Part shown: positions 8,748 to 53,289 of the stretch, one piece after another
Position numbering within the stretch: position 1 is the stretch's first letter
Layout of the letters: each line of letters begins with the position of its first letter
Assembly: GCA_040754655.1 (NCBI GenBank)
Contig: JBFMCE010000003.1
Coordinates: 3,231 to 67,230 of the forward strand
Direction: 5' to 3'
DNA length: 64,000 nucleotides
Source of the DNA: Bdellovibrionota bacterium
Lineage (GTDB): Bacteria > Bdellovibrionota > UBA1018 > UBA923
Program-made: the position numbers and the translations under genes
The notes under the pieces: generated by a model
Databases searched by the model: none
Seen by the model: the letters and a program-made list of their open reading frames with translations, nothing else
What the model was told of the DNA's origin: nothing

Positions 8748-8762
8748 GATTCAGGTCCTTTC

Positions 8763-8777
8763 CTAAGAATTTCTTAG
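8763..8777. promoter_or_regulatory. Perfect 7-1-7 palindrome CTAAGAATTTCTTAG in a divergent intergenic region (candidate operator)
   Basis: Read directly from the sequence. Lies between the start of the NeuB-like gene (8747, minus) and the tandem-GT gene (8846, plus). Confidence 0.35.
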
Positions 8778-8845
8778 ACGCTCTAGACAGAGAATCATGC
8801 TACATTTGTGGGCGGATTGCTAATGGAAAGTGTGGCCTAAAGTCA

Positions 8846-29444: not shown

Positions 29445-30860
29445 TTAAAGTAAAGAACCCTGCTTTTTCGAGCCACGCTCATATTGATAGGCCCACCCCA
29501 ATCCCATTCCCGCAAAGAGCCAGAGCAAGACGCAGTTCTGCGGAGATTCGAATCCGACATTGAAAAATGCATAGACCATTCCGTTGATAGGAACGAAAAC
29601 CAACGCAAGTCGAATGAGTATATCAAGAGAGCCGCTTTCATTTCCCTGCGGTGGCTTGAGAATGCGTTTGATTCTGAGCACCCAAAAAGCCGGGATCAAT
29701 GAGAAGAGCACCAGCCCAACGACGCCCATTCGAGCCAAGATCGAAAGATATGAATTATGGGGCCCCGCAACAGGAGATGCGCTCCGTAAACGCGGAAAGT
29801 TGGCCACGCTCTCCCAGCTGTTCGGCATGTCCTCTTCAAGAAAACTTGGGATCTCAGGAATGAACCCGATCCCCAAAATGGGGTTGAGCTTCCAATCCGC
29901 AAGCGCGGTTTTCCACCAAAATTTTCTCGAACGCATTTGAAAGCTTTGAGGGTTGCCTTCGTAAGGAATGTCTTCTTTCTTTTGCATCGCCTCGAAGAAT
30001 TGGTTGGAAAGTTTTCCCGAGAATTTTTCACGCCCGAAGGATTCAGCGGTGGTCGCATGGGGTTGGCTCAACGTGATAACGAGGAAGCCGGCGATTAAAA
30101 ATGAAAGAGCGATCAGCATTGTTCTCAAAGGTTTGGCTTGAGGCCTAAATTTTGCCAAGATCCATGGCCCTAAGACGACCATCACAAGGCACAAAAGCAA
30201 AGTCGATCGCTGCATCTCTTTAAGGTGCCACAAGACCCAAAACGAGCTGAAGGCCATCAGAGCAACCGCCAATGCAAGCACTGCCTTCTTGAGACGAGCC
30301 TGCCATTTTGACTTTGAACTCAGCATATCCTCAATCAAAACGAGTAGGGGCAAGACAAGCAGCGGTCCCAGGCTGAAATTGATCACTCCCCACTGTCTGC
30401 CATCCGTCCGGAATGGGTTGGGTAAAGCGTTTGCCACGAGAAGCGCGATCACCAGCGTCTTAGTCCAGGGCCTGCCGAGCCAGGCGACCCATGCCCCGAC
30501 GCTCATCCACAAAAATGGGTAAACGAATAAAATAGCATGTTGCACGAAACGCAACGGAGTGCGGCTATCCGCGCGAAGAGATTCAAAACCAAAGACCAAG
30601 TCATGGCTAAACAGCAAGATGCCCCACGAGAAGAATACAAGCGGTGTCAGCAAGACCTTCATCAAATAAGACATCGGGGGAAAATCTCTTGTCGCGACGA
30701 CGACTGCGGCGAAAAAACAAAACAGTGCGTCAAGCATGAATAGAGGACCAACCCGAAGTTTGGCGAAACCCCCGTAGAAATAAGTTACGCCCACGGTTGC
30801 AATGATCACGGACGAAAACGCCAGCCAGCGACAGGTTCTAGAGGCTTGAACCGATTTCAA
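29445..30860 (-). CDS. Wzy_C-domain membrane protein (O-antigen ligase/polymerase or O-oligosaccharyltransferase family)
   Basis: About 12 TM helices with a large loop. A TTG at 30860 overlaps the TGA of the upstream GT4 gene (TTGA coupling). The ORF-track extension to 31049 is Arg-rich and overlaps the upstream gene, so it is probably not translated. Confidence 0.5.
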   Translation of the reverse strand: MKSVQASRTCRWLAFSSVIIATVGVTYFYGGFAKLRVGPLFMLDALFCFFAAVVVATRDFPPMSYLMKVLLTPLVFFSWGILLFSHDLVFGFESLRADSRTPLRFVQHAILFVYPFLWMSVGAWVAWLGRPWTKTLVIALLVANALPNPFRTDGRQWGVINFSLGPLLVLPLLVLIEDMLSSKSKWQARLKKAVLALAVALMAFSSFWVLWHLKEMQRSTLLLCLVMVVLGPWILAKFRPQAKPLRTMLIALSFLIAGFLVITLSQPHATTAESFGREKFSGKLSNQFFEAMQKKEDIPYEGNPQSFQMRSRKFWWKTALADWKLNPILGIGFIPEIPSFLEEDMPNSWESVANFPRLRSASPVAGPHNSYLSILARMGVVGLVLFSLIPAFWVLRIKRILKPPQGNESGSLDILIRLALVFVPINGMVYAFFNVGFESPQNCVLLWLFAGMGLGWAYQYERGSKKQGSLL

Positions 30861-32023
30861 ATGCGTATTCCTTCGATCAGAGAACTCAAGTCTGAACAGA
30901 AGCGGTTGAAGCCCAGGCGGTTTTGGAGATTTCCTTTCTGGGTCGAGTCGATTGACTGGCTCCCTAGAGCTTCTTGCACGGCTCTCGCCAAATCTTGAGG
31001 GTCGCCCGCTTTTGCCAAATGACCCGGAAAATCTCCGGTCGCGAGCCACGACGTGGAATCAAGCGCCGGAACGACACAGCGTTTTCCCTGGAAAAAGGCT
31101 TCAAGCGCAAAAGTTGAAAGCGTTTCATTGCAGATCGACGGCAAGACGGCGATGCGCGACTGGCCAATAAGGTCGAGCACAGTTTCGTGCGATACCGCAC
31201 CTAAGAAGGTGAGGTTCTTCAGCTCACTCACTGCCGCGGTTACCATAGGGCGCTCAGGGCCATCGCCTACGATGAGAAATCTCACGTTAGGCAGCAAGCG
31301 AATGGTCGCGATCAATTCGTAGATCCCTTTTTCTTCCGACAGTCTTCCCGCGTAGATTACGTCATAGTGATCGCTAGCCGAAGGATAGGCGTCTTTGGTC
31401 TTTGGCACTGCGGGCGTCTCAAAACGAAAGACAGGGTTGAGAATGTGGATCACGCGTTCCTTGGGAATGCCTAGCTTCACGAGCTCAGCTTGGAGATATG
31501 GTGATGGGGCCACGAAACGTTGAATGGCCCTTGAATACAGCTCTTCGAGGCGAAGTTCAGTGAGGGCTAGGGAATGGTAGATGCTTTTCTTCCAGCTGCC
31601 GTTGCAATTGTGGAGGATGGGCCTCCACGCCACTTTAGACGTGAAACAGTCCTTGCAGATTTTCTTGTTCCTCAAAGCCAAGCCATTTGTGCAGAAAAAA
31701 CGATGGTTGTGAACCGTCATGACCAAGGGGATGTTGCGCCTGATAGCCCACCTGAAGAAACGCGGTCCTAAGATTGGGAAGACATTGTGCAGGTGAATAT
31801 AGGCGGGCTGCGTGTCTTCCCATAATTTTTCAACCCCGGGGCTTGAGTCGACCGGCGCAAGTGAAGCGAGCGATTTGAGCAGGAGAGAGCCGGGTGGATT
31901 CCTGTCTTCAGGATAAAGCACCGGAGTAACCCCTATCTTTCGGTAGCCTTGCACCAGCGCGTCGACGTGGACATCTTCGCCTCCACGGTGCTCGTAAGGC
32001 ACATGTACGATGAGAACTTTCAT
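30857..32023 (-). CDS. Glycosyltransferase group 1 (GT4)
   Basis: MKVLIVHVPYEHRGGEDVHV N-domain; C-terminal YAGRLSEEKG and EAFFQGKRCVVP. Confidence 0.75.
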   Translation of the reverse strand: MKVLIVHVPYEHRGGEDVHVDALVQGYRKIGVTPVLYPEDRNPPGSLLLKSLASLAPVDSSPGVEKLWEDTQPAYIHLHNVFPILGPRFFRWAIRRNIPLVMTVHNHRFFCTNGLALRNKKICKDCFTSKVAWRPILHNCNGSWKKSIYHSLALTELRLEELYSRAIQRFVAPSPYLQAELVKLGIPKERVIHILNPVFRFETPAVPKTKDAYPSASDHYDVIYAGRLSEEKGIYELIATIRLLPNVRFLIVGDGPERPMVTAAVSELKNLTFLGAVSHETVLDLIGQSRIAVLPSICNETLSTFALEAFFQGKRCVVPALDSTSWLATGDFPGHLAKAGDPQDLARAVQEALGSQSIDSTQKGNLQNRLGFNRFCSDLSSLIEGIRI

Positions 32024-32142
32024 TTCTTTGAAACACTCCGTATGGGCGAAATTAAATCAAATGAGGTTAAAACACAAAAGCTAAAGACAGGCGCCGGGAT
32101 AAGCCATTGAAGAAGCAAAATGTTTCATGCATAAACAGGGAA

Positions 32143-33543
32143 ATGCCATCACTGACGCTGAAGAAGCTGCTCGCAATCGCAACCGTGTATTCTATTTTTT
32201 GTTGGGTTGGCTTTGTTGCGCGGGGCGACTACTACCATAAACAGTCAGACCAGTTTTATTACCTCTCGCTTGCTGATTCCCTGAGGGAAACGGGCGAGAT
32301 GAAGGCTCGAATCGCGATTGAAGGCGAGGAAGGCACCATCCCTCCGACTGCGAACACGGGTATCGCTCTTTTGATGTACCCGCTCTCTAGCTTAAGTTTT
32401 GACGCCGTCTGCATCAGCTTGTCTGTGTTTTATCTGATTCTGCACCTGTCATCGGTTTTCCCGCTTTCAAGGCTTCTTTTGCACTTTGGGGTGAGCGCGA
32501 AAATATCTCATTGGGTGATTCTTCTTTATTTCCTCTCATTTCCCCTCACCCTTTATAAACTAAGGCCCGTGAACGAAGGCGCTTCGTTTGCCCTTATTCA
32601 TTGGTTTTTGTATTTTTTGTTCGTAGATCGCAAGCGCTACTGGTTCTTGCTGTTTGCCCTTCTTGCTCCGATTTTTCGGGTGCATATCGTGGCAACCGAA
32701 TTGGCTGCTTTGGCAACGTCGATTTTTAACCGGTCCAAGCAAGTGGCCTTGCGGGCGATCGCTTCCATTGGCGCAAGCGTCGCGGGGCTAGGGATTTATT
32801 CGCTCTTATTTCCGTTTCACCAAAAAGGCTTGGGCCAACCTTTGGAACGCGAGAGCGTCATTGTGCCAGCGATTTTAGAGACTGCCGTCGCCTTGCTTCA
32901 CTTGATGGTACCTGAAAGCGCATTCACCTTGGCTTTTGGTGACCAGCGACGGGCGGTAGAAACCCTCTTGGGGCTTCTTGCCTTGATTGCTGTGCTTTAT
33001 TCTTTTTTGCGCAATCTTCGGAAAGAATCCAATAAAGAGCTTCATTTCTTTGGGCTGGCGGTCTTTGGGTTCTCGGTTCTTTTTTTGCTGGGCTCGACGA
33101 CTGTTATCGCGCGTTTTTTCACGGTCGCGTATTTCTGGATTTTGTTGGCTCTTGTAGTCTTTTTCAACCAACTGAGCCCCAAGGCGGCGACTTTCTTCTC
33201 GGGTGCGCTCATCGCATTGAATGTCGCGCTTGTTGCGGCGTTCTTGTCTACGAAGACGACGAACCCGCTTTATCGCGAGTTCGAGGATGTGAAGAAGTTG
33301 GCGCCGAAGGCGAAAGACTATGCGCACGTCTACTTTGACCCTGAGTTTCGTTTCAATTCACGCTTTCTCTACGGGTATCTGCGTCGTCCGGCTTGGGTTT
33401 TAGACAAGCTGCCGCCGGAAGAAAGATTTGTGTATGTATCGCGGGAACCGTCCCGAGTTTTGAAGAAACTCTCGTTTTGCAAATCAGAGATATTTAGGGC
33501 GGATGCTTTGAGTCTCGTGAACTTCGATTGCGCGCCTCGATAG
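32143..33543 (+). CDS. Polytopic integral membrane protein (GT-C/polymerase-like), function unknown
   Basis: About 12 hydrophobic helices. The ATG at 32143 has AGGGAA RBS; the ORF-track TTG at 32107 is also possible. Confidence 0.4.
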   Translation: MPSLTLKKLLAIATVYSIFCWVGFVARGDYYHKQSDQFYYLSLADSLRETGEMKARIAIEGEEGTIPPTANTGIALLMYPLSSLSFDAVCISLSVFYLILHLSSVFPLSRLLLHFGVSAKISHWVILLYFLSFPLTLYKLRPVNEGASFALIHWFLYFLFVDRKRYWFLLFALLAPIFRVHIVATELAALATSIFNRSKQVALRAIASIGASVAGLGIYSLLFPFHQKGLGQPLERESVIVPAILETAVALLHLMVPESAFTLAFGDQRRAVETLLGLLALIAVLYSFLRNLRKESNKELHFFGLAVFGFSVLFLLGSTTVIARFFTVAYFWILLALVVFFNQLSPKAATFFSGALIALNVALVAAFLSTKTTNPLYREFEDVKKLAPKAKDYAHVYFDPEFRFNSRFLYGYLRRPAWVLDKLPPEERFVYVSREPSRVLKKLSFCKSEIFRADALSLVNFDCAPR

Positions 33544-33662: not shown

Positions 33663-34409
33663 ATGGTCAAATCAAATGATGATGTGCTTTTGCTGACAGG
33701 GTCGAGCGGCGGCCTTGGTCTTGGTTTGGCTGAGAACTTCTTAGAGCAAGGGCATCGCAACATAGCTTTTCAATATCGATCTTCAGACACGAAACTTAAA
33801 GACCTTCTCGCCAAATATGATCTCTCGCCGGAGAGGCATCTTTTTAAGGCAGACCTCACCCGGGAAAATGAAGTCCGCCAGATGAGAGAAGGCATCGAGT
33901 CCAAGCTCGGTCCTGTTTTCGGGTTGGTGAATCTCGCGGGTGCCTCCTCGAATGGAATGAGCTGGAAGCTGACTTACGAAGAATTTCAATCGGTGGTGAA
34001 TGCGAATCTTGGCGCGACGTTCTTGTGCTCAAAAGAATTTATTCCAGGCATGCGGGCGGCCGGACGAGGGCGGATCATCAATGTCTCTAGCGTAGTTGCC
34101 TTTACCGGAGCGCCAGGAGCATCTCATTATAGTGCTGCGAAGGCTGCCATCATTGGACTAACCCACTCATTAGCTCTTGAACTTGCTGGTAAAAACATCA
34201 CGGTCAATGCATTGGCACTAGGTTATTTTGATCGCGGCTTGATTGATTCGGTGCCCGAAGAGATCCAACAGAAGATCAAAGAGAAGATCCCAGCTTCTCG
34301 GTTTGGAAACCCGCAAGAGATCTCTGGGATGATGGATTTTTTGCTGAGTGAGGGTGGGGCTTACACGACAGGTCAGGTTCTTCATATCAATGGCGGGCTT
34401 TACTTCTAA
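33663..34409 (+). CDS. SDR family oxidoreductase, FabG-like (3-oxoacyl reductase-type)
   Basis: LLLTGSSGGLGLGLA, NLAG, NVSSVVAFTGAPGASHYSAAKAA. The ATG has a GAGGGGAA RBS. The ORF-track start at 33561 is a spurious extension. Confidence 0.8.
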   Translation: MVKSNDDVLLLTGSSGGLGLGLAENFLEQGHRNIAFQYRSSDTKLKDLLAKYDLSPERHLFKADLTRENEVRQMREGIESKLGPVFGLVNLAGASSNGMSWKLTYEEFQSVVNANLGATFLCSKEFIPGMRAAGRGRIINVSSVVAFTGAPGASHYSAAKAAIIGLTHSLALELAGKNITVNALALGYFDRGLIDSVPEEIQQKIKEKIPASRFGNPQEISGMMDFLLSEGGAYTTGQVLHINGGLYF

Positions 34410-34414
34410 CTCTT

Positions 34415-35500
34415 ATGCACTATCGAGACTTTGAAGCTTCTCAGCATCTCAGTGAGCAACGGCAGCTTTTCTCGGATTGTTTCCCGGAGTCTCATCTTGC
34501 AAGCATTGGTTCAACCGAACATTATCAATGGAAGTTTCGAGGATTAAACGCGACCAGGCCTTCTTATGAGTACGCGGCCTTCGATGAAACGCGTTTGGTA
34601 GGGTATTACGCTGCCCTTCCTTATCGTTATAGGATCAACGGGAAGAAGGTCCTTTGCGGAGTTGTCTGCGACGTGATGACGCATTCTTCTTCTAGGGGAA
34701 AGGGAATTTTTACGGCACTAGGACGCCATTCCTTGAACCAGCTCCAAGCGGAAGGGATAGGCTTCGTTTCAGGCTATCCCATTCGACCTGAAGTTCTGCC
34801 GGGCCATTTGAAGGTAGGATGGAAAGTGGCTTTTTCGCTCCCTCTTTATATCAAAGTGTTGCGGGTGAATTCGGCGCTGAAGAAGGCCGGGCTGGAAGGC
34901 TTCGCGCCTTTTTGCAACGGGTTGGTCATGGGTGTTCGGTTGGTTCAGTCAATTCCCGCTCTCTTTCGGCGTAAAGATTCCGATGGCTTCGAAACCCGGG
35001 TTTTTGAAGTTGAGGAATTCTTGGGGCTGTCTGAGTACGACGCTTTTTTTTCAAGATGGAGCGCTCAATTTCAAAATGTCCTGCAAAAAGATTTGGAATT
35101 CTTGAAATGGCGGCTGCGAGCCCCCGGTGCGGCCTACCGGGTTCTGACGGTTTGGAGCGAGGGCAGCTTGATTGCTGTCTCAATCGTAAGGAAGGTCGAG
35201 TTCAATAGCTTGCCTTGTCTTGCAGTCCTAGACCTCATGAGTTTGACACAAGAGGCGGCACCTTTGAGAGCGTTGCATGGCGCTTTAGAGCAAGAGTGCA
35301 TCGTTCAGGGGGCTGAAACCATCGCCGTGATGATGAGCAGAACATCTGCCCGACGCGCAGGTCTTAGGGCCCATGGTTTTATCCGCAGCCCTAAGGGTTT
35401 TAAACTTATATTGAATCGATTGGATTCCGCTTTGAACCTCGATCAGTTGATGGAGGAAAAAAACTGGAACCTGATGTGGATCGACTCTGACGATTTATGA
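34415..35500 (+). CDS. FemAB-like / GNAT-fold acyltransferase (PEP-CTERM-locus-associated type)
   Basis: 361 aa with acyl-CoA N-acyltransferase-like core (HSSSRGKGIFTALG). Its position next to a FSVDVEDF-type deacetylase mirrors the FemAB-related/deacetylase pair of EPS loci. Confidence 0.5.
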   Translation: MHYRDFEASQHLSEQRQLFSDCFPESHLASIGSTEHYQWKFRGLNATRPSYEYAAFDETRLVGYYAALPYRYRINGKKVLCGVVCDVMTHSSSRGKGIFTALGRHSLNQLQAEGIGFVSGYPIRPEVLPGHLKVGWKVAFSLPLYIKVLRVNSALKKAGLEGFAPFCNGLVMGVRLVQSIPALFRRKDSDGFETRVFEVEEFLGLSEYDAFFSRWSAQFQNVLQKDLEFLKWRLRAPGAAYRVLTVWSEGSLIAVSIVRKVEFNSLPCLAVLDLMSLTQEAAPLRALHGALEQECIVQGAETIAVMMSRTSARRAGLRAHGFIRSPKGFKLILNRLDSALNLDQLMEEKNWNLMWIDSDDL

Positions 35501-36348
35501 TGAACCAACGACAATACAATGGCATTTTCATGTTCAGCGTTGATGTGGAAGACTTCCCGGTCATCAAAGATGGCAAAAGTTGTTATGCCGGACGCGTGAC
35601 CGAGCTCACCGATCAGTACATCGAGTTTTTGCGGAAGAGGAAAATGCGCGCCACTTTCTTCATCCTAGGCGAAGTGGCTGAAAGAAATCCTGAGCTTGTA
35701 AGAAAGCTTGTTGATCAGGGCCATGAGATTGGTTGCCATGGTTACGCACATGTGACGCTCGACAAACAGAACCCAGGGGGTTTTGAGGCCGATCTCACCC
35801 GGGCGCTCGAAGTTTTGCATCAAGCGGGTGCGACGAAGGTTTGGGGTTACCGCGCGCCTTTTCTTTCGATTACGCCGAAAACGGTTTGGGCTTACGATGT
35901 TTTAAGCAAGCTTGGTTTTCGATATTCCAGCTCGGTGATGCCTCATTATAATCCTTCTTTTGGCTGGCCCGATTTTGGTGAACGACCTCGTAAACAGGGC
36001 CAGATTTGGGAATTGCCCGTGAGTCTGATGCCTTCGCTTCCTCTTGCCATCCCTGTTGCCGGAGGAGTGTACTTTCGGATGCTTCCTTTCCGCTATATTT
36101 CCCGTGCTTTTCGGCTGCATTTAAAGCAAAACAAACCCGTGTTTGGATACTTTCATCCCTATGACATTGACTGGGAGTCAGAGAGCAAGCAGTGCGCTTG
36201 GCTGCAGCGGAATCCGCTGTTCAATTTCTTCATGTTTTACAACCGCAAGGCGATGTTGAGCCGTCTAGAGCGGGTGATGCAGCAGGGGTTCGAGATCTTG
36301 CCTTACTCTGAGTTCCTTGCAAAACATGCGGCTGGAGTTGCACTATGA
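35497..36348 (+). CDS. Polysaccharide deacetylase family (CE4/NodB homology; DUF3473-type)
   Basis: FMFSVDVEDF N-terminal motif and H..GCHGYAHV metal-site histidines. Confidence 0.75.
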   Translation: MMNQRQYNGIFMFSVDVEDFPVIKDGKSCYAGRVTELTDQYIEFLRKRKMRATFFILGEVAERNPELVRKLVDQGHEIGCHGYAHVTLDKQNPGGFEADLTRALEVLHQAGATKVWGYRAPFLSITPKTVWAYDVLSKLGFRYSSSVMPHYNPSFGWPDFGERPRKQGQIWELPVSLMPSLPLAIPVAGGVYFRMLPFRYISRAFRLHLKQNKPVFGYFHPYDIDWESESKQCAWLQRNPLFNFFMFYNRKAMLSRLERVMQQGFEILPYSEFLAKHAAGVAL

Positions 36349-37415
36349 GTGAATTGCCTGTTTTGATTATTCCCGCATACCAGCCGGAACGGCGACTTGT
36401 TTCTCTTGTCGATGATTTGTTGGCGAGCGGATTTCCGTCGATTCTGGTCGTCGATGACGGTTCAGCCCCAGAGAAGACCCCTATCTTTGACGAGCTCCGA
36501 AAGAAGAATGGGGTGAGCGTTCTCTCTCATGCCGTGAATCTTGGCAAAGGAGCTGCTCTCAAGACCGCTTTCAATCACATCCTTGTCCATATGAAAGAGA
36601 GTTTCGGAGCCGTGACGCTTGATGCTGACGGCCAACACTTGCCGGCGGATGTCTTGAAAGTGGCCGCCGGTTTGAAGTCCAATCCGAACTCGCTCATCTT
36701 GGGTTCACGGGACTTCAAAGAAGGCGTGCCGCTCAAAAGCGCTTTTGGAAACACGCTTACTCGCCATGTCTTTCATTTTCTCATCGGAAAAAAGATCAGG
36801 GACACCCAAACGGGTTTGAGAGGCATTCCTTCCTCTTTGATGCGCGATCTCTTGGTCGTGCCATCGAGCCGGTATGAATTCGAGCTGGATATGCTGGTCA
36901 TTGCGACGGGCAAGCGCGTGGCTTTGATCGAGGTCCCTATTTCAACAGTTTATATTGATGGAAACCGCGGTTCCCATTTCAACCCGTTGCTGGACTCGCT
37001 CCGCATTTATTTCGTTTTCTTGCGTTTCGTATTTTCTTCCCTCTTGACCTATTGCGCGGACCTCGTCGTTTTCACAGTGGCGTACGCTTTGGCGCACAAC
37101 ATCTTCTTTAGCGTCGTTGTCGGGCGAGCGTCTGGCGCGGCGGTGGGCTTCATGACATCGAAATCTTTCGTGTTCAAGTCCGAGAAGAACGCCAAAGAAA
37201 CGCTGGTGAAGTTTTTCTTGCTCTGGTTGAGCTTGCTCGGGATTTCATATGGACTCATGATCCTTTTTGTCGAAGCGCTCAGATTCAATGTCTATGTCTC
37301 GCGCGTGACGGTGGATTCGGTTCTGTTCGTTTTCAACTTCTTGGTGCAAAGGGATCTTATCTTCGGTGAGCGCGGCGGATCTTTTCAGAAATTCGCCTCT
37401 AAGAGGTTTCTGTGA
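36345..37415 (+). CDS. GT2 polyprenyl-phosphate glycosyltransferase fused to C-terminal GtrA-like 4-TM domain
   Basis: N-terminus LIIPAYQPE...ILVVDDGSAPE...LDADGQH is a DPM1/GtrB-like GT2. The C-terminal ~120 aa carry four hydrophobic helices ending LVQRDLIFG (GtrA-like). Confidence 0.75.
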   Translation: MSELPVLIIPAYQPERRLVSLVDDLLASGFPSILVVDDGSAPEKTPIFDELRKKNGVSVLSHAVNLGKGAALKTAFNHILVHMKESFGAVTLDADGQHLPADVLKVAAGLKSNPNSLILGSRDFKEGVPLKSAFGNTLTRHVFHFLIGKKIRDTQTGLRGIPSSLMRDLLVVPSSRYEFELDMLVIATGKRVALIEVPISTVYIDGNRGSHFNPLLDSLRIYFVFLRFVFSSLLTYCADLVVFTVAYALAHNIFFSVVVGRASGAAVGFMTSKSFVFKSEKNAKETLVKFFLLWLSLLGISYGLMILFVEALRFNVYVSRVTVDSVLFVFNFLVQRDLIFGERGGSFQKFASKRFL

Positions 37416-38758
37416 GCCAGCAAAGACGTCGCATGCTGGTTTTTGAACTGAATGAGTTCAATCTAGGGCTTCTTTCCAAGGCGGCCGAAGAATTGTCGTT
37501 AACCCATGTCCAGCGCATGCTTGCGATGAAACGCACCCAGCTTCGCACTCAAGACCGTTATGAAAGCGATTATCTTGAGCCTTGGGTGCAGTGGGTTTCG
37601 GTGCATACGGGTACGCCATCGACGGTGCACAAGATAAAACACCTGGGCGACGTTCCTCATCTGCATACGCCTCAAGTCTGGGCTGAGCTTTCCAAGCATC
37701 ATATTACCAGCGGAGTTTGGGGAGCGATGAACGCCGGGAGGGCCAATGCCGAGTCGTGCCTATTTTTCTTGCCAGACCCCTGGACCTTTTCGGAAGACGG
37801 TTATCCGCAGTCGCTCAGCAGGCTGCTTGATCTTCCGCGGTATGTTTCGAAGAACTACCTGAACCTTTCGAAATCGACGGTAGCGAAGAAGTTTTATGGA
37901 TTTTTGAGCGCATTCCTATTTTCAAAAGTTGGGTTTTCTTTCCTTGCTGAACTGCCTTCTTTTCTTTGGAACACGCTGAAGTTCAAGGGCGAGCATTTCG
38001 TGTTCATTTGCTTCACTGAATACCTCTCATCCCTTCTTTTTCTTGAGTACAAGAAAAGGCATGACCCTGATTTGAGCCTCCTGTTCGTGAACAGCTTGGC
38101 TCATTTGCAACACCACCACTGGCACAGCGATTCGTATAAAGACAATGCGCGGCTTGGTTACGGGCTGAAGATGATCGACCGTCTTTTAGGCAAGATCTTC
38201 AAGGCGCTCAAAGAAGGCGAGGTTTTTGTCGCGCTCAATGGCCTTTCTCAGATGAATACGAATCATGAGAAGCCGTGGATCTTGTATCGCCAGCGCGATC
38301 AACTTTCTTTTTTGAGGCGAGTCGGGGTTTCTTACACCCATGTCGAACCTCACATGACCCACGACGCCCATATCTTTTTCGCAAGCCCAGAAGGCTGCCA
38401 GCGTGCAAAGGCGATCTTGGGGTCTGCGACCGTGAATCAAGAAAAGTTGTTCTTGGTCGAGGCTTACGCTGATGATCCGAAGAAGCTTTTTTACCGCATC
38501 CAATTCACCGATGAACTGCCTCATGATGCCGTTCTCGAGGTGGGCGGAAAGAGAGAAAGGTTTTTCGATCTTTTTGAGGCTATTGTGCGTCGGACGGGCA
38601 AACACATCCCGGTGGGCACTCTGTTCACGAATTCACTTGAAGTCCCGGACTCGATGGAAAACCATGAATTGTATGAGCACGTCCTGGGTTTTTACGGTGT
38701 TTCGCGCGATCGTCCTCAGCCTCGCCTGAAGGAATCGGCTGAATCAACGAGACTTTGA
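37412..38758 (+). CDS. Hypothetical protein, possibly alkaline-phosphatase-superfamily phosphotransferase/phosphodiesterase
   Basis: His-rich stretches (NSLAHLQHHHW, HMTHDAH) and VSVHTGTPSTVH (possible Thr nucleophile). Weak, memory-based call. Confidence 0.25.
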   Translation: MSQQRRRMLVFELNEFNLGLLSKAAEELSLTHVQRMLAMKRTQLRTQDRYESDYLEPWVQWVSVHTGTPSTVHKIKHLGDVPHLHTPQVWAELSKHHITSGVWGAMNAGRANAESCLFFLPDPWTFSEDGYPQSLSRLLDLPRYVSKNYLNLSKSTVAKKFYGFLSAFLFSKVGFSFLAELPSFLWNTLKFKGEHFVFICFTEYLSSLLFLEYKKRHDPDLSLLFVNSLAHLQHHHWHSDSYKDNARLGYGLKMIDRLLGKIFKALKEGEVFVALNGLSQMNTNHEKPWILYRQRDQLSFLRRVGVSYTHVEPHMTHDAHIFFASPEGCQRAKAILGSATVNQEKLFLVEAYADDPKKLFYRIQFTDELPHDAVLEVGGKRERFFDLFEAIVRRTGKHIPVGTLFTNSLEVPDSMENHELYEHVLGFYGVSRDRPQPRLKESAESTRL

Positions 38759-39559: not shown

Positions 39560-39647
39560 TAAGATTTTTTTGTTCGGCTAGCAACGCAAATAGTGATCTG
39601 GTGAATTGATTTGACTTATTTTGACCCCGATTGATACATTTTCGCAA

Positions 39648-42025
<2,378 letters not shown>

Positions 42026-42029
<4 letters not shown>

Positions 42030-42928
42030 AACTTGGCTTGGGTACCGTGCAGTTCGGCTTAAACTACGGTGTCTCAAACCGATCTGGGATCGTAGCGCCG
42101 TCCGAAGTGAAGAATGTACTGGCATGCGCTGCGAAGTCCGGCGCCGTTGGCTACCTTGATACGGCGACCGCTTACGGGAGCGCAGAAGAGGTTCTGGGTG
42201 CGACCCTTGAACAGAGGCACCCATTCAAGATCGTGACGAAAACCCCGACTTTTAAAGATTCCTTGATTTCTAGCGAGAGTGCCGACGAGTTGGAACGAAG
42301 TTTCAGGAAGTCATTGTTAAGACTGAACCAGACTGCAGTCTATGGCCTGCTTGCGCATCACGCCTCACCTCTTCTTGATCGCGATGGCGCGTTCTTGTTC
42401 GATCGAATGTTGAAGCTCAAAGAACAAGGCGTGGTGAAAAAGATCGGCGTCTCGGTTTACAGCGCCGAAGAAATAGATCGGGTCATTGAACGCTATCCTG
42501 TTGAGCTGATCCAAGCGCCTGTGAGTCTTTTAGATCAGCGTCTTGTGACCGGTGGGCACTTGGCGCGCTTGAACGAAAGAGGCATCGAAGTGCATGCCCG
42601 CTCTGTTTTCTTGCAAGGGCTTCTTTTGATGGAGGCCGATAATATTCCTCGGAACTTGGCTTCGATTCAAGAGCATTTGGGCAACTTGCGTGCTGAGGTC
42701 GAAGCACGGGGGCTGACGATGTTGCAGGCGGCGCTGGGTTTTGTATTGAATCTAGAAGCCGTGACGGCATGCTTGGTGGGTGTTTGCTCTTTAAGCGAGT
42801 TGAATCAAATCTTGGAAGCAGCCCGGTTGGCGCAAGAAAAGAAATTTGAGATCTCAGGCGTCGCAGCAAGTGCCGCTTGGGACGATGAGAGGGTGTTGAA
42901 CCCATTTTTTTGGGAGAAGTATGCTTAA
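42026..42928 (+). CDS. Aldo/keto reductase
   Basis: MKLGLGTVQFGLNYGVSN...DTATAYG is the AKR N-terminal signature. Confidence 0.8.
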
Positions 42929-44084
42929 AAGATGCGTGAAATGCGGTTTGCCAGAGACCTACGAGACGATCGAATTCGACGCTTCAGGGGTCTGCAATAT
43001 TTGCCGCCAAAAAAACTTCAAAGATGCTTCGATCGACTGGAAGGCGAGGAAGGTGATGTTCGATCAACTCGTTGAAGAGTATCGAGGCAAATATGAATAT
43101 GATTGCATCGTGCCCTTCTCGGGCGGGAAAGATTCGACGTTCACTTTGAATTATCTGATGCGCAAGTACAAACTCAAGCCTCTTGTCGTTCAGTTCAATC
43201 ATGGGTTCATGCGAGAGAATCTGCTGAAGAACAACGAACGGACCTTCAAAAAACTGGGAGTCGATGTGTTGAGCTTCACTCCTAATTGGAAAGTCGTCAA
43301 AAGGTTGATGCTCGAGGCTTTGATCCGAAAGGGTGATTTTTGTTGGCATTGCCATACGGGCATTTTTTCGTATCCCATGCACGTTGCGATCAAATACAAT
43401 ACGCCGCTCGTCATTTGGGGTGAACCCTCTTCTGAGTACACGGCGTATTACGATTACCGAGACAATGAAATCGAAGAAGTTGATGAGACCAGATTCAATC
43501 GTTTCGTGAACCTGGGTATCACTGCTGAAGACATGGCCGGGATGATCAAAGATGATTTCAATCTTGATCCACGAGACCTTGCTCCTTATGCGTATCCGAA
43601 GACCAGAGACTTGAAGCGCCTTAAGTATCGGTCGGTCTGCCTGGGCTCTTTCATTCCCTGGGATGTGAAGCGCAATGTTGAAGAGATCTCTCGCGATTTG
43701 GGTTGGAAGGGCGATGAAGTAGAGGGCATGCCGCCAGGCAAGTATCCTTACGAAAAGATCGAGTGCTACATGCAGGGCGTGCGAGATTACATCAAGTACC
43801 TCAAGCGTGGCTACTCACGCGTGACGCAAATGACTGCATTGGATCTTCGAAATGACCGTATTTCAAAAGAAGAAGCGGATCGACTGGTCGAGGAATATGA
43901 GGGCAAAAAGCCGCCATCGTTGCAGCTGTTCTTAGAGTACTTGGGGCTTAGCGAACAAGAGTTCAACGAGATCGTAGCGAAAACTGTGGTTCCTCCTTTC
44001 AAACCTGATTTTGAAACCATTCCGAGCGCGCCAAATACCTGGGATTTCGAACGCTGGTATCGCGAGGGTAAGGAAAAACCATGA
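42921..44084 (+). CDS. N-acetyl sugar amidotransferase, PP-loop ATPase (PseA/WbuX/WbpG-like), copy 1
   Basis: N-terminal Cys4 (CVKCGLPE...CNIC), PP-loop PFSGGKDST, and followed by hisH/hisF homologues. Confidence 0.8.
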   Translation: MLKRCVKCGLPETYETIEFDASGVCNICRQKNFKDASIDWKARKVMFDQLVEEYRGKYEYDCIVPFSGGKDSTFTLNYLMRKYKLKPLVVQFNHGFMRENLLKNNERTFKKLGVDVLSFTPNWKVVKRLMLEALIRKGDFCWHCHTGIFSYPMHVAIKYNTPLVIWGEPSSEYTAYYDYRDNEIEEVDETRFNRFVNLGITAEDMAGMIKDDFNLDPRDLAPYAYPKTRDLKRLKYRSVCLGSFIPWDVKRNVEEISRDLGWKGDEVEGMPPGKYPYEKIECYMQGVRDYIKYLKRGYSRVTQMTALDLRNDRISKEEADRLVEEYEGKKPPSLQLFLEYLGLSEQEFNEIVAKTVVPPFKPDFETIPSAPNTWDFERWYREGKEKP

Positions 44085-44698
44085 TCGGCATCCTTGACAT
44101 GAATATGGGAAATCTCAGGTCCGTGACCAATGCGGTTTACAGCTTGGGTTATGATCCCAAGGTTATTCATGACCAAGAGGGCTTGAAAGAAGCGTCACAC
44201 CTTATCATTCCGGGAGTAGGTGCTTATCCGGCAGCGATGCGCCAGCTTGAGGCGATGAACCTGAAGGACGCGATCAAAGATTTTGCCAGCACCAAGCGGC
44301 CGGTGCTTGGGATTTGCTTAGGCATGCATATCTTCTCGACTTCTGGTGAAGAGGGGGGCGGAGCCGAAGGGTTAGGCCTTGTTCCGGGAGAGGTGCTGCG
44401 CATCGATACTCAGCCCGGACTGGTAGTCCCTCATGTGGGATGGAACAACATCCGATTTCTCAAAGAGCATCCTGTGCTTGAGAAGGTCAAGGACGGCGTC
44501 GATTTTTACTTCGTGCATTCGTATCGCTATGTTTGCGAGGACCAGCAAGACGCATTTGGCGAAACCGAATATGGTGATGCTTGGCCGTCAGTGGTCGCCA
44601 AAGACAACGTCATCGGTTTTCAATTCCATCCAGAGAAAAGCCAGATCAACGGTTTGAAGCTGATCGAGAATTTCTGCGAGTGGGATGGCAAATGTTGA
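44081..44698 (+). CDS. Imidazole-glycerol-phosphate-synthase HisH-like glutamine amidotransferase (WbuY-like), copy 1
   Basis: LIIPGVGAY...GICLGMH (catalytic Cys)...FQFHPEKS (His/Glu). Confidence 0.85.
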   Translation: MIGILDMNMGNLRSVTNAVYSLGYDPKVIHDQEGLKEASHLIIPGVGAYPAAMRQLEAMNLKDAIKDFASTKRPVLGICLGMHIFSTSGEEGGGAEGLGLVPGEVLRIDTQPGLVVPHVGWNNIRFLKEHPVLEKVKDGVDFYFVHSYRYVCEDQQDAFGETEYGDAWPSVVAKDNVIGFQFHPEKSQINGLKLIENFCEWDGKC

Positions 44699-45456
44699 AA
44701 AAAAGGATCATTCCCGTGCAGTTGCTCTTGAATGGAAGACTAGTGAAGACCAAGGGATTTGACTCTTTCCGCGACGTCGGAGATCCGGTCGCCAGTTCCA
44801 AGGTCTATAGCTCGCAGTATGCAGATGAGTTGGTTTTTCTGAATATCAGCCGAGAGAATCGCACAATCGAGTCTTTGTTATCGCTCATTGAACGAGTCTC
44901 AGAGGTTTGTTTCATGCCGCTGACCTTCGGCGGGGGGATAAGATCGCTCAGAGACGCCGAGCAGTTGATAAAGAACGGGGCAGACAAGATTGTTTTGAAT
45001 TCGGTTTCTTATGAAGACAGCCAAGTGATTTCCCAGATTGCCGATAAATTTGGATCTCAGGCTGTGGTGGTTTCAATGGATGCCAGGTTCGATTTGAAGG
45101 CAAATCGATACCGGTTGTATTCTCAATGCGGCACAAAGCTCGAAGAACCCTCGATCGAAGATCATGTACGGAAGGTGATTGAACACGGCGCTGGCGAGAT
45201 CTTCATCAATTCCATCGACAGAGACGGGATGATGACGGGTTACGATCTGAATTTGATCCGGCAAGTGGTGGGTTGTTCTTCTGTGCCCGTGATCGCTTGC
45301 GGTGGGGCTGGCCATTACGAGCATATGAAAGAGGCTTTCCTTGAAACGAAGGTCAGCGCTTTGGCGTGCGGGAGCTTGTTCAATTTCGGAGACAACAATC
45401 CGATTCGCGCCAAAGCTTTTTTGAGCAACTACGAGTTGCAGTTCAAGAAGGTGTGA
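44692..45456 (+). CDS. HisF-like cyclase subunit homologue (WbuZ-like), copy 1
   Basis: RIIPVQLLLNGRLVKTKGF, FGGGIRS and ACGGAGH barrel phosphate-binding motifs. ATGTTGA overlap with hisH-like stop. Confidence 0.85.
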   Translation: MLKKRIIPVQLLLNGRLVKTKGFDSFRDVGDPVASSKVYSSQYADELVFLNISRENRTIESLLSLIERVSEVCFMPLTFGGGIRSLRDAEQLIKNGADKIVLNSVSYEDSQVISQIADKFGSQAVVVSMDARFDLKANRYRLYSQCGTKLEEPSIEDHVRKVIEHGAGEIFINSIDRDGMMTGYDLNLIRQVVGCSSVPVIACGGAGHYEHMKEAFLETKVSALACGSLFNFGDNNPIRAKAFLSNYELQFKKV

Positions 45457-45458
45457 AA

Positions 45459-46016
45459 ATGGCTTTGACGAAACCCCTTAAAGGAAAACGCATCTATCTG
45501 AGGGAAGTGAAGTTGACTGACGTGAATGATCGTTACGTCAGTTGGCTCAATGATAGCGAAGTCACCAGGTACCTTGAAGTCCGTTTTCACCCTCAGAACC
45601 TTGATACGATCGCAGGCTTCGTCGCTAAAATGCGGGAGAGCGAGAACGAATTTCTTTATGCGATCTGCTTGAGCTCGAACGACCAGCACATCGGCAATAT
45701 CAAGCTCGGTCCGGTGAATGCGCACCATCGTAGCGCTGATGTGAGCCTTTTCATCGGCGAAAAGAAATGCTGGGGGCAGGGCTATGCCGCCGAGGCGATT
45801 GGCTTGGTGACGCGATTCGCTTTTCGTGAGCTTGGGCTCAATAAGTTGAGGGCTGGTTGTTACGCGGGGAATGAGGGCAGCGCTCGCGCATTCGAGAGAG
45901 TCGGATACCGAAGAGAAGGTCTTTTGCGCGGACAAGTTCTCTGCGACGGCAAAGAAACCGACGTCATTACGCTAGGCCTAAGGGCCGTAGAGTATCGCGA
46001 GGAGGCGAATCGATGA
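45459..46016 (+). CDS. GNAT family N-acyltransferase (RimL-like)
   Basis: 185 aa with IGNIKL, GEKKCWGQGYAAEA (acyl-CoA pocket) and FRELGLNKL. Confidence 0.75.
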   Translation: MALTKPLKGKRIYLREVKLTDVNDRYVSWLNDSEVTRYLEVRFHPQNLDTIAGFVAKMRESENEFLYAICLSSNDQHIGNIKLGPVNAHHRSADVSLFIGEKKCWGQGYAAEAIGLVTRFAFRELGLNKLRAGCYAGNEGSARAFERVGYRREGLLRGQVLCDGKETDVITLGLRAVEYREEANR

Positions 46017-48055
46017 TCGCCGCGATCCTGCAGGCTCGTTTTTCATCTTCGCGACTGCCAGGAAAAGTTTTGAAACCTATTCTTGGCAAGCCGATGCTCG
46101 TACGCCAGATTGAAAGGGTGAAACGTTCGAAGAAGATTAATTCGATCGTGATCGCCACCAGCGTCGACCCGAGTGATGATGCCGTCGCCGAGGCAGCCCG
46201 TAGTGCCGGGGTTGGCTGCTTCCGGGGGAGCTTGGATGATGTTTTGGACCGGTTTTACAAAGCTGCGGGGAGCCTGCCTTCTCGTCCGGATCATCTTGTC
46301 CGGTTGACTGGCGATTGTCCGCTGATCGACCCGAGGCTGATCGATGATGTGGTCTCTTTTTGTGTTGAGGGAGACTTTGATTACGCCAGCAATGCGATCG
46401 AACCCACCTTTCCAGATGGGCTGGACGTCGAAGTATTCCGTTATGAGGTGTTGACTCAGGCATGGGAAGAGGCAAAGCTGCTTTCACAACGCGAGCATGT
46501 AACGCCCTTTATCCATACCCAACAAAATCGATTTAACGTTGGTCATTACAAAGGAAAAGTAGATTTGTCCTCGTTGCGCTGGACGGTCGATGTTCCGGCG
46601 GATTTTGAATTCGTGAATCGAATTTACGAAGAGCTTTATCCGTTAAGAGACGATTTTTCGATGGAAGACGTTCTGAAGTTGCTGGAACAGAAGCCTCGCC
46701 TGGCTGGGATCAATAAGGATTTAGAAAGAAATGAGGGTTTTAAAGTGTCTCAGCGAAAAGACTTTTTCATGAACCGTTATCAAAAATCCAATGTGCTATT
46801 GGAGCAAACTTTAAAAACAATCCCTCTTGGCAGTCAGACTTTCAGCAAGAGCAAGACCCAGTATCCGAAGGGAGTGTCTCCATACTTCATTGAACGCGCC
46901 CGGGGAAGCCGTGTCTGGGACGTCGATGGGAACGAGTATGTGGATTTTGTGAACGGTTTGTGTGCAGTGAACTTGGGTTATGGTGATCCCGATGTGACTA
47001 AGGCTGTCAAGGAGCAGCTTGAAGACGGCGTTATTTTTTCGCTCCCGCATCCCATTGAAGGCCAGGTTGCCGAGAAAATGGTAGAGATGATTCCGTGCGC
47101 AGAGATGGTTCGGTTCGGAAAGAATGGTTCGGATGCAACTTCTGGCGCCATTCGATTGGCAAGGGCTTATACACGGCGTGACCACGTCGCGGTCTGTGGT
47201 TATCATGGGTGGCAAGATTGGTATATTGGCTCGACTGCACGGAACCTTGGCGTTCCGCAAGCGACACGCGATCTCACCCATGCTTTTACTTATAATGACC
47301 TTGAATCCCTAAAGAAGGTCTTTAGCGACTATCCAGATCAAGTTGCTGCCGTGATCATGGAACCTGTAAATGCCCAAGAGCCCAAGGCAGGGTTTCTCAA
47401 TGAACTTCAGGAACTCACAAAACAAAATGGGGCTTTATTGATCTTTGACGAGACTATTACCGGGTTTCGTTTCGATAATGGCGGCGCCCAGGCGACTTAT
47501 AAAGTGACGCCGGATTTGGCTACTTTCGGCAAGGGTATGGCTAACGGGTACCCGGTCTCGGCGATCGTGGGTAAAGCAGACGTGATGCGCCTCATGGAGG
47601 AAATCTTTTTTTCTTTCACCTTTGGTGGAGAAACGCTTTCGCTAGCTGCAGCGCTGGCGACGATGACAAAGCTCCAGGCGCGCCCCGTGGTTCAGGCGAT
47701 GTATGAACAAGGCAAAAAAGTCATTGCAGGGGTGGAGAGGCTGATCGAGCAGTTTGAGATGAGCGATATGCTTTCGATCACTGGGAATCCTACTTGGTCT
47801 TTTCTAAATTTTAAGGAGATAGCCCCGTACACTCAATGGCAGATCAAGACATTGTTTTTGCAAGAGGTCTTTGCCCGGGGGATCTTGCTTCTTGGTACTC
47901 ACAATATGAGTTATTCACACAATGACGGCGATATTGAAAAGCTTCTGGCGACTTATAAAGAAGTTTTTCCCGTCTTAAGATCAGCTGTGAGAGAGAAGGG
48001 TCTTGAAAGATTGTTGTTCACTCAGCCTCTAGAGCCTCTTTTTAAATTGCGATGA
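46013..48055 (+). CDS. Bifunctional protein: N-terminal PseF/SpsF-like cytidylyltransferase (CTP_transf_3) fused to C-terminal class III aminotransferase (GSA-aminomutase-like)
   Basis: Residues 1-250: MIAAILQARFSSSRLPGKVL...DCPLIDP. Residues ~270-680: FVNGLCAVNLGYGDP...LIFDETITGFRF...TFGKGMANGYPVSA class III AT motifs. No stop or frameshift between the domains. Confidence 0.75.
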   Translation: MIAAILQARFSSSRLPGKVLKPILGKPMLVRQIERVKRSKKINSIVIATSVDPSDDAVAEAARSAGVGCFRGSLDDVLDRFYKAAGSLPSRPDHLVRLTGDCPLIDPRLIDDVVSFCVEGDFDYASNAIEPTFPDGLDVEVFRYEVLTQAWEEAKLLSQREHVTPFIHTQQNRFNVGHYKGKVDLSSLRWTVDVPADFEFVNRIYEELYPLRDDFSMEDVLKLLEQKPRLAGINKDLERNEGFKVSQRKDFFMNRYQKSNVLLEQTLKTIPLGSQTFSKSKTQYPKGVSPYFIERARGSRVWDVDGNEYVDFVNGLCAVNLGYGDPDVTKAVKEQLEDGVIFSLPHPIEGQVAEKMVEMIPCAEMVRFGKNGSDATSGAIRLARAYTRRDHVAVCGYHGWQDWYIGSTARNLGVPQATRDLTHAFTYNDLESLKKVFSDYPDQVAAVIMEPVNAQEPKAGFLNELQELTKQNGALLIFDETITGFRFDNGGAQATYKVTPDLATFGKGMANGYPVSAIVGKADVMRLMEEIFFSFTFGGETLSLAAALATMTKLQARPVVQAMYEQGKKVIAGVERLIEQFEMSDMLSITGNPTWSFLNFKEIAPYTQWQIKTLFLQEVFARGILLLGTHNMSYSHNDGDIEKLLATYKEVFPVLRSAVREKGLERLLFTQPLEPLFKLR

Positions 48056-51338: not shown

Positions 51339-51344
51339 CGAGAG

Positions 51345-52157: not shown

Positions 52158-52161
52158 AGCC

Positions 52162-53283: not shown

Positions 53284-53289
53284 GACACG

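Follow-up and report, generated by a model that had tools for sequence, protein, structure and literature searches.

A recurrent reductase-acyltransferase-deacetylase cassette joined to a GT2-GtrA gene in a Bdellovibrionota genome: a probable N-acyl exchange unit for amino sugars

What do a reductase, an acyltransferase, a deacetylase and a glycosyltransferase do together in one tightly packed gene cluster? The question is raised by a 64,000-nucleotide stretch of DNA from a Bdellovibrionota bacterium (contig JBFMCE010000003.1, positions 3,231 to 67,230, assembly GCA_040754655.1), further referred to as the window. An earlier note on this DNA read the genes at 33663-37415 as a sub-operon resembling a module for N-acylation of sugars on a lipid carrier. 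All four open reading frames (ORFs) are indeed present there on the plus strand (Table 1). They encode a short-chain dehydrogenase/reductase (SDR), a GNAT acyltransferase, a carbohydrate esterase family 4 (CE4) deacetylase and a glycosyltransferase family 2 (GT2) domain fused to a GtrA-type domain. We consider it quite probable, judging from gene content and motifs, that the first three enzymes exchange the N-acetyl group of an amino sugar for a 3-hydroxyacyl group, and probable that this N-acyl exchange unit is joined to a glycosylation module of the lipid-carrier (three-component) type. More tentatively, we place the exchange on the lipid carrier itself.

The three enzymes travel together far beyond the window. 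In total, 84 loci with homologues of the GNAT protein were fetched from species-representative genomes and metagenomes, of which 82 were non-redundant; their neighbours were mapped via tblastn and ORF clustering. The cassette counts given below are minima, as short contigs were frequent and some genes of high-GC genomes were lost in the ORF filter. The GNAT loci span at least eight phyla, with hosts from Bdellovibrionota, Bacteroidota, Actinomycetota (Solirubrobacterales), Acidobacteriota, Myxococcota, Spirochaetota (Leptospira), Nitrospirota and Bacillota (Negativicutes). The SDR gene is present in 70 of the 82 loci and stands directly upstream of the GNAT gene in at least 64, mostly overlapping it. 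A deacetylase gene is found within 8 kb in 69 loci and directly flanks the GNAT gene in 55; all three genes are contiguous in 44. The deacetylase belongs to the CE4 family with the DUF3473 domain in 49 loci; in 20 others a PIG-L protein, of an unrelated family, takes the same place. Since two families interchange at one position, the deacetylase activity itself appears to be required, and this interchange is the strongest single argument for de-N-acetylation as the required activity. Further, a FabH-type 3-ketoacyl synthase III (KAS III) gene directly precedes the SDR gene in 30 loci; the cassette KAS III scores 332 bits against NF006829, over the cut-off of 249. A GT2 gene of the polyprenyl-phosphate type lies within 8 kb in 35 loci. 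The synteny in 82 loci, the displacement of CE4 by PIG-L and the FabH genes in 30 loci bear out the suggestion of the earlier note that the deacetylase, the acyltransferase and the SDR form an N-acyl exchange unit. In the literature searched we found no description of the SDR-GNAT-deacetylase cassette, of DUF3473 deacetylases or of the GT2 / alkaline-phosphatase-fold gene pair considered below.

The deacetylase of the window matches Polysacc_deac_1 (PF01522; 1.3e-22, 80.5 bits against a cut-off of 23.1) and DUF3473 (8e-22) in Pfam, and its PDB matches are CE4 deacetylases without exception. Residues H81 and H85 form an invariant HxxxH motif, to which the same motif of chitin and peptidoglycan deacetylases aligns. 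Among 20-49 cassette homologues, R119-A-P121 (motif 3) and Y218-x-H220 (motif 5) are invariant or nearly so, as are, without exceptions, D16 and E18 of the family motif LTFD-x-ED, which lies outside all alignments to solved structures. Of the CE4 metal triad, whose lack would have spoken against the earlier reading, the histidine pair is in place, and D16/E18 are the putative acid part. The best NCBIfam family of this protein is TIGR03006 of the XrtA system, at 192.3 bits against a cut-off of 276.2. The CE4+DUF3473 architecture is common to the window deacetylase and to the deacetylase and FemAB pair of PEP-CTERM/XrtA exopolysaccharide loci. The two differ in that the window protein does not reach the equivalog cut-off, no FemAB protein serves as the acyltransferase and the partners are an SDR and FabH; TIGR03019 (pepcterm_femAB) matched none of the operon proteins in the NCBIfam scan, and no exosortase or PEP-CTERM families turned up in general profile scans covering part of the window. 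Membership of the locus in a PEP-CTERM/exosortase system, as the earlier note had framed it, was rejected on the score below the TIGR03006 cut-off and the lack of a TIGR03019 match.

The acyltransferase, called FemAB-like in the same note, belongs elsewhere. At E≤0.01 its matches are Acetyltransf_9 (4e-19) and Acetyltransf_1 in Pfam and no NCBIfam family, and the Acetyltransf_9 match is confined to the N-terminal third of the protein. The AlphaFold model (pLDDT 93, built from a 40-sequence alignment) is a duplicated, or tandem, GNAT fold; the closest structures are Eis, N-myristoyltransferase (NMT) and a glucosamine N-acetyltransferase. Structure prediction thus returned the GNAT fold that had been expected, though not a Fem-like one. 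In the alignment of 40 homologues, the acyl-CoA loop reads R94-G95-K96-G97, with G95 invariant and G97 at least 90% conserved, and the C-terminus WxDxDxL-COOH is invariant, every homologue ending there. The C-terminal carboxylate is the catalytic base in Eis and NMT. The family comprises about 700 detectable members, all of about 360 amino acids (aa). The window protein shares about 12% sequence identity with Eis, MshD and NMT, has no SCP2-like third domain of the kind found in Eis, and differs from the three in gene context and in the presumed acyl donor and acceptor. We propose that it is an N-(3-hydroxyacyl)transferase with the de-acetylated amino sugar as acceptor.

With a FemAB-type, aminoacyl-tRNA-dependent transferase, the de-acetylated sugar would instead receive an amino acid, in the manner of PEP-CTERM/exosortase loci. 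The best NCBIfam match of the deacetylase, XrtA-system TIGR03006, is compatible with this alternative, as is the tandem GNAT fold, which is common at the superfamily level to Fem transferases. FemAB identity was rejected after profile scans gave no PF02388 or TIGR03019 signal and the nearest structures were not Fem transferases; we regard transfer of an amino acid, which the earlier note had offered as an option, as hardly credible.

A tblastn search of plasmids with the GNAT protein returned only relatives of 21-23% identity. One of them (23%), on an Azospirillum brasilense plasmid (L090; NZ_CP059452.1, 705315-724199), is encoded in a polysaccharide locus a few genes away from a polysaccharide deacetylase. 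The pairing of GNAT with deacetylase may therefore extend to remoter relatives.

The SDR matches adh_short_C2 in Pfam (7e-47). Its best NCBIfam family is FabG, TIGR01830 (200.6 bits against a cut-off of 297.75), and it scores 190 bits against acetoacetyl-CoA reductase, TIGR01829 (cut-off 302.1). Its best PDB matches are FabG (4nbu) followed by acetoacetyl-CoA reductases (4kms, 4k6c). The motif TGSSGGLG at residues 12-19 and the tetrad N90, S142/143, Y156 and K160 are conserved across 73 cassette SDRs, and YRSS at 38-41 suggests use of NADP(H). Since both scores lie below the equivalog cut-offs, we take the protein for a specialised paralogue and not for an orthologue of the housekeeping FabG. 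Its proposed role is the reduction of 3-oxoacyl-CoA to (R)-3-hydroxyacyl-CoA, which would supply the acyl donor. In the cassettes, KAS III and a ketoreductase precede a GNAT of the CoA type, and dehydratase, enoyl reductase and acyl carrier protein (ACP) are lacking, so that a short 3-hydroxyacyl-CoA is the expected donor. A motif scan for ACP-like ORFs within 8 kb gave none in 81 cassette loci, the window itself not being in the scan. The simplest case would be acetoacetyl-CoA converted to (R)-3-hydroxybutyryl-CoA, the chain length being one that we infer. A tblastn search of the window with the query set assembled here found no homologue of FabH, PIG-L, LPG_synthase_TM or DUF2304; with no KAS III, the 3-oxoacyl-CoA would here come from general metabolism.

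Another role is conceivable for the SDR, namely keto-reduction or epimerisation of the sugar itself, lipid- or nucleotide-linked, in the manner of DprE2 or WreQ; the GNAT protein would then be an ordinary N-acetyltransferase and the product a rearranged N-acetyl amino sugar. DprE2, cited in PMC11127046, is a known SDR with a lipid-linked sugar as substrate, and both the score under the FabG equivalog cut-off and the lack of FabH in the window by tblastn agree with it. It fails to account for the true FabH directly ahead of the SDR in 30 loci, the best matches of the SDR are all 3-oxoacyl-ACP or acetoacetyl-CoA reductases, and removal of an acetyl group followed by its restoration would be futile. 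The candidate was discarded on these three grounds, its chance being very slim.

The fourth gene links the exchange unit to a carrier. Its product matches Glycos_transf_2 (PF00535; 3.7e-13, 50.2 bits) and GtrA_DPMS_TM (PF04138; 7.9e-10, 39.4 bits), both over the cut-offs. The best NCBIfam scores are far under theirs (AglJ, 60 against 325; PpgS, 59.8 against 370), and the sole PDB match by sequence is the Pyrococcus DPMS (5mlz). The protein carries the motifs DDGS (37-40) and DADGQH (93-98, with DAD at 93-95), and its transmembrane (TM) segments lie within residues 223-313. The match to DPMS, the AglJ and PpgS best hits and the GtrA/DPMS TM domain place it with synthases of polyprenyl-phosphate sugars, in agreement with the earlier note. 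We propose that this GT2-GtrA protein would act as a polyprenyl-phosphate hexosamine synthase with a built-in flippase-like module.

True orthologues of GT2-GtrA are found within the cassette in Bryobacterales and in a deltaproteobacterial metagenome-assembled genome (MAG); those beside the cassette in Bryobacterales and in L040 are 38-45% identical to the window protein. In L082 (Bryobacteraceae, Acidobacteriota) the order is KASIII-SDR-GNAT-CE4-GT2GtrA, that is, the order of the window plus FabH in front; in L079 it is GT2GtrA-SDR-GNAT-CE4, and in L040 GT2-GtrA is placed between SDR and CE4. The four-gene unit of the window is therefore recurrent. In Solirubrobacterales, six co-directional genes follow one another as CE4-LPG_synthase_TM-DUF2304-GT2-SDR-GNAT. 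The L082 genes form a self-contained KASIII-SDR-GNAT-CE4-GT2GtrA-methyltransferase operon (8221-13748) in housekeeping surroundings (Lon, an S41, CtpA-like protease, lipoyl synthase and an Lnt-like protein), with no other glycan genes nearby, which suggests that such a unit can work without a surrounding polysaccharide locus.

These arrangements bear on the main rival of the lipid-carrier reading. The same de-N-acetylation and 3-hydroxyacylation could take place while the sugar is bound to a soluble nucleotide (from UDP-HexNAc through UDP-HexN to UDP-HexN-acyl); GT2-GtrA would then use the finished donor, or would be independent of the cassette and work with the alkaline-phosphatase-like (AP-like) protein encoded next to it. 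The cassette enzymes are all soluble and cytoplasmic, 22 FabH-bearing cassettes (mostly Bacteroidota loci with WecA-like, GT4 and WecG genes) have no polyprenyl-phosphate-type GT2 nearby, and the GT2-AP pair is kept on its own in about 55 cassette-less loci, as this alternative would lead one to expect. It does not explain why GT2 is interleaved in the cassette operon in several phyla (L040, L079, L082 and Solirubrobacterales, the last with the flippase-like LPG_synthase_TM gene), or why the L082 operon is self-contained, with no other glycan genes nearby. ArnD, NaxD and LgmC, which deacetylate or deformylate after lipid loading, are precedents for work on the lipid carrier. We consider the nucleotide-sugar version unlikely, and the swap on the lipid carrier to be somewhat short of an even chance.

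The favoured scheme, in which the sugar, the carrier and the order of steps are those that we infer, would run as follows. On the cytoplasmic side of the membrane, GT2-GtrA would charge polyprenyl phosphate with HexNAc taken from a nucleotide sugar, and the cytoplasmic CE4/DUF3473 enzyme would strip the N-acetyl group. The FabG/PhaB-like SDR would convert 3-oxoacyl-CoA, in the simplest case acetoacetyl-CoA from general metabolism, to (R)-3-hydroxyacyl-CoA, and the Eis/NMT-like tandem GNAT would move the 3-hydroxyacyl group onto the freed amine. The GtrA-type domain would then assist flipping of the lipid-linked N-(3-hydroxyacyl)hexosamine, and a polytopic enzyme, most likely the product of the gene directly upstream of the SDR gene (Table 1), would add the residue to a surface glycan of the Wzy/GT locus.

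Several observations weigh against parts of this scheme. Given the lack of FabH in the window, the acyl donor is a guess here, and the SDR scores under both the FabG and the acetoacetyl-CoA reductase equivalog cut-offs. The acid metal ligand of the CE4 enzyme is assigned by motif conservation alone (DxE, not DD). The polytopic protein has no detectable similarity to GT-C families. The 22 FabH-bearing loci without a polyprenyl-phosphate-type GT2 within 8 kb, mostly from Bacteroidota, are ordinary polysaccharide loci. GT2-GtrA is therefore not needed there, and the acceptor may be a nucleotide sugar or an undecaprenyl-diphosphate-linked sugar; the distribution of the cassette suggests that it is portable and that its acceptor may be something other than the GT2-GtrA product. 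Finally, the AP-like protein is a more constant partner of GT2-GtrA than the cassette is, and the model does not account for what the AP-like protein does.

The organization of the genes fits a single operon. The ATG of the SDR gene at 33663 is preceded by a good ribosome-binding site, AAGAGGGG. The SDR and GNAT genes are separated by a gap of 5 nt, the GNAT/CE4 and CE4/GT2-GtrA junctions are 4-nt ATGA overlaps, and the GT2-GtrA gene and the AP-like gene share a GTGA overlap (translational coupling). The operon thus extends past 37415, with the AP-like gene as its fifth member, before it converges on a minus-strand methyltransferase gene. The earlier note was right about the four packed genes and placed the end of the operon one gene too early. 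Its domain calls stand for the FabG-like SDR, the DUF3473-type deacetylase and GT2-GtrA, all with profile matches well beyond chance and unambiguous at the superfamily level; the FemAB-like label gives way to the Acetyltransf_9 tandem GNAT. The four soluble proteins contain no signal peptide or TM segment, hence the chemistry would be cytoplasmic and precede export. A promoter and terminator scan of the region gave counts no higher than those of shuffled sequence.

Table 1. Coordinates of the operon genes and of other features of the locus (positions in the window)
Feature	Coordinates	Strand	Remarks
SDR, FabG / acetoacetyl-CoA-reductase-like	33663-34409	+	248 aa, ATG start
Tandem-GNAT N-acyltransferase, Eis/NMT-like	34415-35500	+	361 aa
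CE4 (NodB-homology) + DUF3473 de-N-acetylase, cytoplasmic	35497-36348	+	283 aa
GT2 domain fused to GtrA/DPMS-type TM domain	36345-37415	+	356 aa
Alkaline-phosphatase-superfamily protein, cytoplasmic	37412-38758	+	448 aa
Orphan polytopic membrane protein	32107-33543	+	478 aa from TTG; about 10-11 TM segments
Wzy_C	29445-31049	-	listed GTG start at 31049
Initiating Bac_transf	20219-21703		

The AP-like protein has the core fold of the AP superfamily (NPP/PafA branch) by fold search and no match in the PDB by sequence. Like the GNAT protein, it has a 100% match among the MAG proteins at NCBI. In its family, E12, N14, E15, D48, H231, H234, D318 and H398 are invariant, H320 nearly so, and T46 is conserved in only about 90% of members. 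By their conservation, these residues may make up a metal site in which ELNEFN, in place of DG, would provide atypical ligands on the first strand. The family has about 760 members, the named sources being Chlamydiota, Verrucomicrobiota, Oligoflexia and Berkiella. The AP-like gene stands beside a GT2 gene in all three loci that were looked up. In a scan of 84 metagenome loci with this gene, about 55 have a directly adjacent GT2 gene, co-directional or divergent, the remainder being mostly short contigs, and none contains the GNAT/CE4 cassette. The GT2 that almost always neighbours the AP-like protein is of the DPMS/GtrB type, with or without the GtrA domain. In Berkiella, the GT2 and AP-like pair stands alone among unrelated genes. 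The orthologues of the window GT2-GtrA are 61% identical to it in L085 (an Oligoflexia MAG), 56% in L088 and 46% in Berkiella (L086).

For the polytopic gene, the TTG at 32107 is a more probable start than 32143, because a homologue aligns from residue 2. Its product has no Pfam or NCBIfam match, and a word-indexed search for homologues was empty. An exhaustive search of 1.84 billion proteins gave a family of 20 representatives, six of them full-length at 34-38% identity and none with a Pfam domain. Homologues directly follow the GT2GtrA-AP pair in L085 (38% identity) and in L088/L089 (35%), and in the loci examined the family is seen only beside such pairs. Its conserved loop motifs are LSxADSxRxxG, PxNEGxS and APxFRxHI. 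By hhalign, the protein matched neither the PMT_2, Wzy_C and 397-aa proteins of the window nor any of three large polytopic families that neighbour the cassette in other loci at a significant level. We regard it as a candidate transferase of the periplasmic face, for which the lipid-linked sugar would be the substrate. Apart from the cassette, which is missing there, L085 shows synteny with the window: its methyltransferase is 56% identical, its WbuX-type amidotransferase 85%, and HisH/HisF are also present. On this comparison of gene orders, the window is best described as an SDR-GNAT-CE4 cassette apparently inserted into a GT2GtrA / AP-like / polytopic module.

The earlier note had named three neighbouring polytopic proteins as candidate users of the lipid-linked sugar. 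The one listed there at 32143-33543 is now backed by synteny (L085, L088/L089), and the PMT_2 protein at 11904-13490 is still a possible alternative user. The gene of this GT-C protein is overlapped by 4 nt by a WcaA/TuaG-like GT2 gene (10930-11907), and PMT_2 is possibly a second user of lipid-phosphate-linked sugars in the locus. The three large families, with proteins of about 700-750 aa and no Pfam match, are found beside the cassette and GT2 in 17 loci (for example, L001 9168-11414, L041 12874-14988 and L038 5356-7500). By hhalign, two of them are weakly alike and one is weakly like the window PMT_2 (probabilities 80% and 49%, respectively). They are candidate GT-C partners.

Downstream of the operon, at 39874-55892, lies a pseudaminic-acid-type (Pse-type) pathway: a PseB-like dehydratase, a DegT aminotransferase, PseG (287 bits, over the cut-off), NeuB and two PseH-like GNATs. 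It includes two sets of WbuX with the HisH/HisF amidotransferase (42921-45456 and 50712-53283), which imply two acetamidino groups. These genes suggest another target for the cassette, which could re-tailor an N-acyl group (e.g. at N5) of this sugar and not of the GT2-GtrA hexosamine. Besides the PseB/PseC-like enzymes, PseG, NeuB, the amidotransferase sets and the PseH-like GNATs of the window, it has in its favour that L085 and L088 also put the GT2GtrA-AP-polytopic trio beside NeuB/WbuX and that Pse with 3-hydroxybutanoyl groups is known (PMC3628348, PMC3726653). Against this, nonulosonate genes are not recurrent in the 82 loci (DegT-type aminotransferase is present in 7 and NeuB is outside the top clusters), the L082 and Solirubrobacterales units have none, and L085 and L088 keep the Pse-type genes and lack the cassette. 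We consider this target very unlikely.

The exchange unit and its proposed carrier can be compared with described systems. Three-component glycosylation is represented by GtrB/GtrA/Gtr*, ArnC-ArnD-ArnE/F-ArnT, FlmF2-NaxD-FlmK and PpgS-Rv3779. The window resembles them in the DPMS/GtrB-type GT2 that would load polyprenyl phosphate, in the GtrA-type module (here fused) and in the polytopic membrane protein encoded alongside; a cytoplasmic de-N-acylase is shared with the Arn, Nax and Lgm systems. Three-component systems, and tailoring of sugars while on undecaprenyl phosphate, which is a precedent for the steps proposed here, were described in PMC11127046. Unlike in Arn, Nax and Lgm, where the end point is a free amine, a dedicated GNAT with its own reductase would re-acylate the sugar here. 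Further differences are the lack of a detectable GT-C signature in the polytopic partner, the extra AP-fold protein and the equivalog scores of GT2-GtrA, which are far below the cut-offs set for such enzymes as PpgS, AglJ and ArnC.

De-N-acetylation followed by N-acylation is the logic of LpxC/LpxD (lipid A), NodB/NodA with NodE/F/G (Nod factors), TunE/TunC (tunicamycin) and teicoplanin Orf2*/Orf11*. The same two steps on a GlcNAc-type sugar are proposed here. A further similarity to Nod factor synthesis is that a KAS, a FabG-like reductase and a GT2 go along with the deacetylase and the N-acyltransferase, and the Tun, teicoplanin and Nod pathways all use PIG-L or CE4 deacetylases. The acyltransferase, in contrast, is an Eis/NMT-like tandem GNAT, a family different from those of LpxD (LbH), NodA and TunC. 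Compared with the Nod and similar pathways, the cassette has no ACP, dehydratase or enoyl reductase nearby, so that a short 3-hydroxyacyl group is expected, and the GT2 is of the polyprenyl-phosphate synthase type, not processive as NodC. The 3-hydroxybutanoyl transferases FdhC (Salmonella O55 / E. coli O103), QhbA and Psb5/PsaE (Acinetobacter, Shigella) have been described (PMC3628348, PMC3726653), and the probable product is similar, an N-(3-hydroxybutanoyl) amino sugar of a surface polysaccharide. FdhC, QhbA and Psb5 acylate aminotransferase-made amines on nucleotide sugars, and no deacetylase is needed (PMC3628348, PMC3726653). The presence of a deacetylase and of an acyl-CoA supply of its own suggests that the cassette targets a C2 amine that arrives already acetylated.

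The chemistry and the carrier logic are thus familiar; the cassette itself is uncharacterised and widely distributed. Bacterial surface glycans commonly carry N-acyl groups other than acetyl, 3-hydroxybutanoyl among them, as decorations that define serotypes, and re-acylation of the already acetylated C2 amine of a hexosamine is not covered by the described transferase genes. The cassette pairs a deacetylase with an Eis/NMT-like GNAT that would have an acyl-CoA supply of its own, and would be a concrete and widespread genetic answer, and, if this holds, annotators could predict such decorations from sequence. Coupling to GT2-GtrA suggests acyl remodelling on a lipid carrier, which would extend the three-component model of glycosylation, and the analysis also exposes the conserved GT2 / alkaline-phosphatase-fold gene pair. 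In a bolder version, [FabH]-SDR-GNAT-deacetylase with GT2-GtrA would be a self-sufficient pathway, of which the stand-alone L082 operon is the example. Its product would be a lipid-linked N-(3-hydroxyacyl)hexosamine not described before, serving as a membrane glycolipid in itself or as a new type of donor for the decoration of periplasmic glycans, and the AP-fold protein would be a fourth, so far unrecognised lipid-carrier component in Bdellovibrionota, Chlamydiota, Verrucomicrobiota and Legionellales-like symbionts. We rate this version as a long shot; if true, the glycolipid would follow a minimal lipid-A- or Nod-factor-like logic with unrelated enzymes.

Several minor observations concern the cassette loci and the surroundings of the operon. 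In Bryobacterales (L031 11685-14447, also L042 and L060), CysD and CysN/CysC-like genes (sulfate adenylyltransferase / APS kinase) come next after the cassette, which hints that the same glycan might be sulfated. In the window, the surrounding locus also encodes GT4 enzymes. About 190 nt of the Wzy_C ORF as listed are shared with the upstream GT4 gene (region 29445-32023, minus strand), and the true start of Wzy_C probably lies further downstream. A small ORF with an HTH_17 domain (excisionase/MerR-like; 39621-39881) is situated between the convergent methyltransferase gene and the PseB-like gene and is preceded by the sole TG-extended promoter-like match of the scanned region. Finally, the nonulosonate block contains an unusual 680-aa fusion (46013-48055) of CTP_transf_3, a CMP-sugar cytidylyltransferase domain, with a class-III aminotransferase, similar to glutamate-1-semialdehyde aminomutase.

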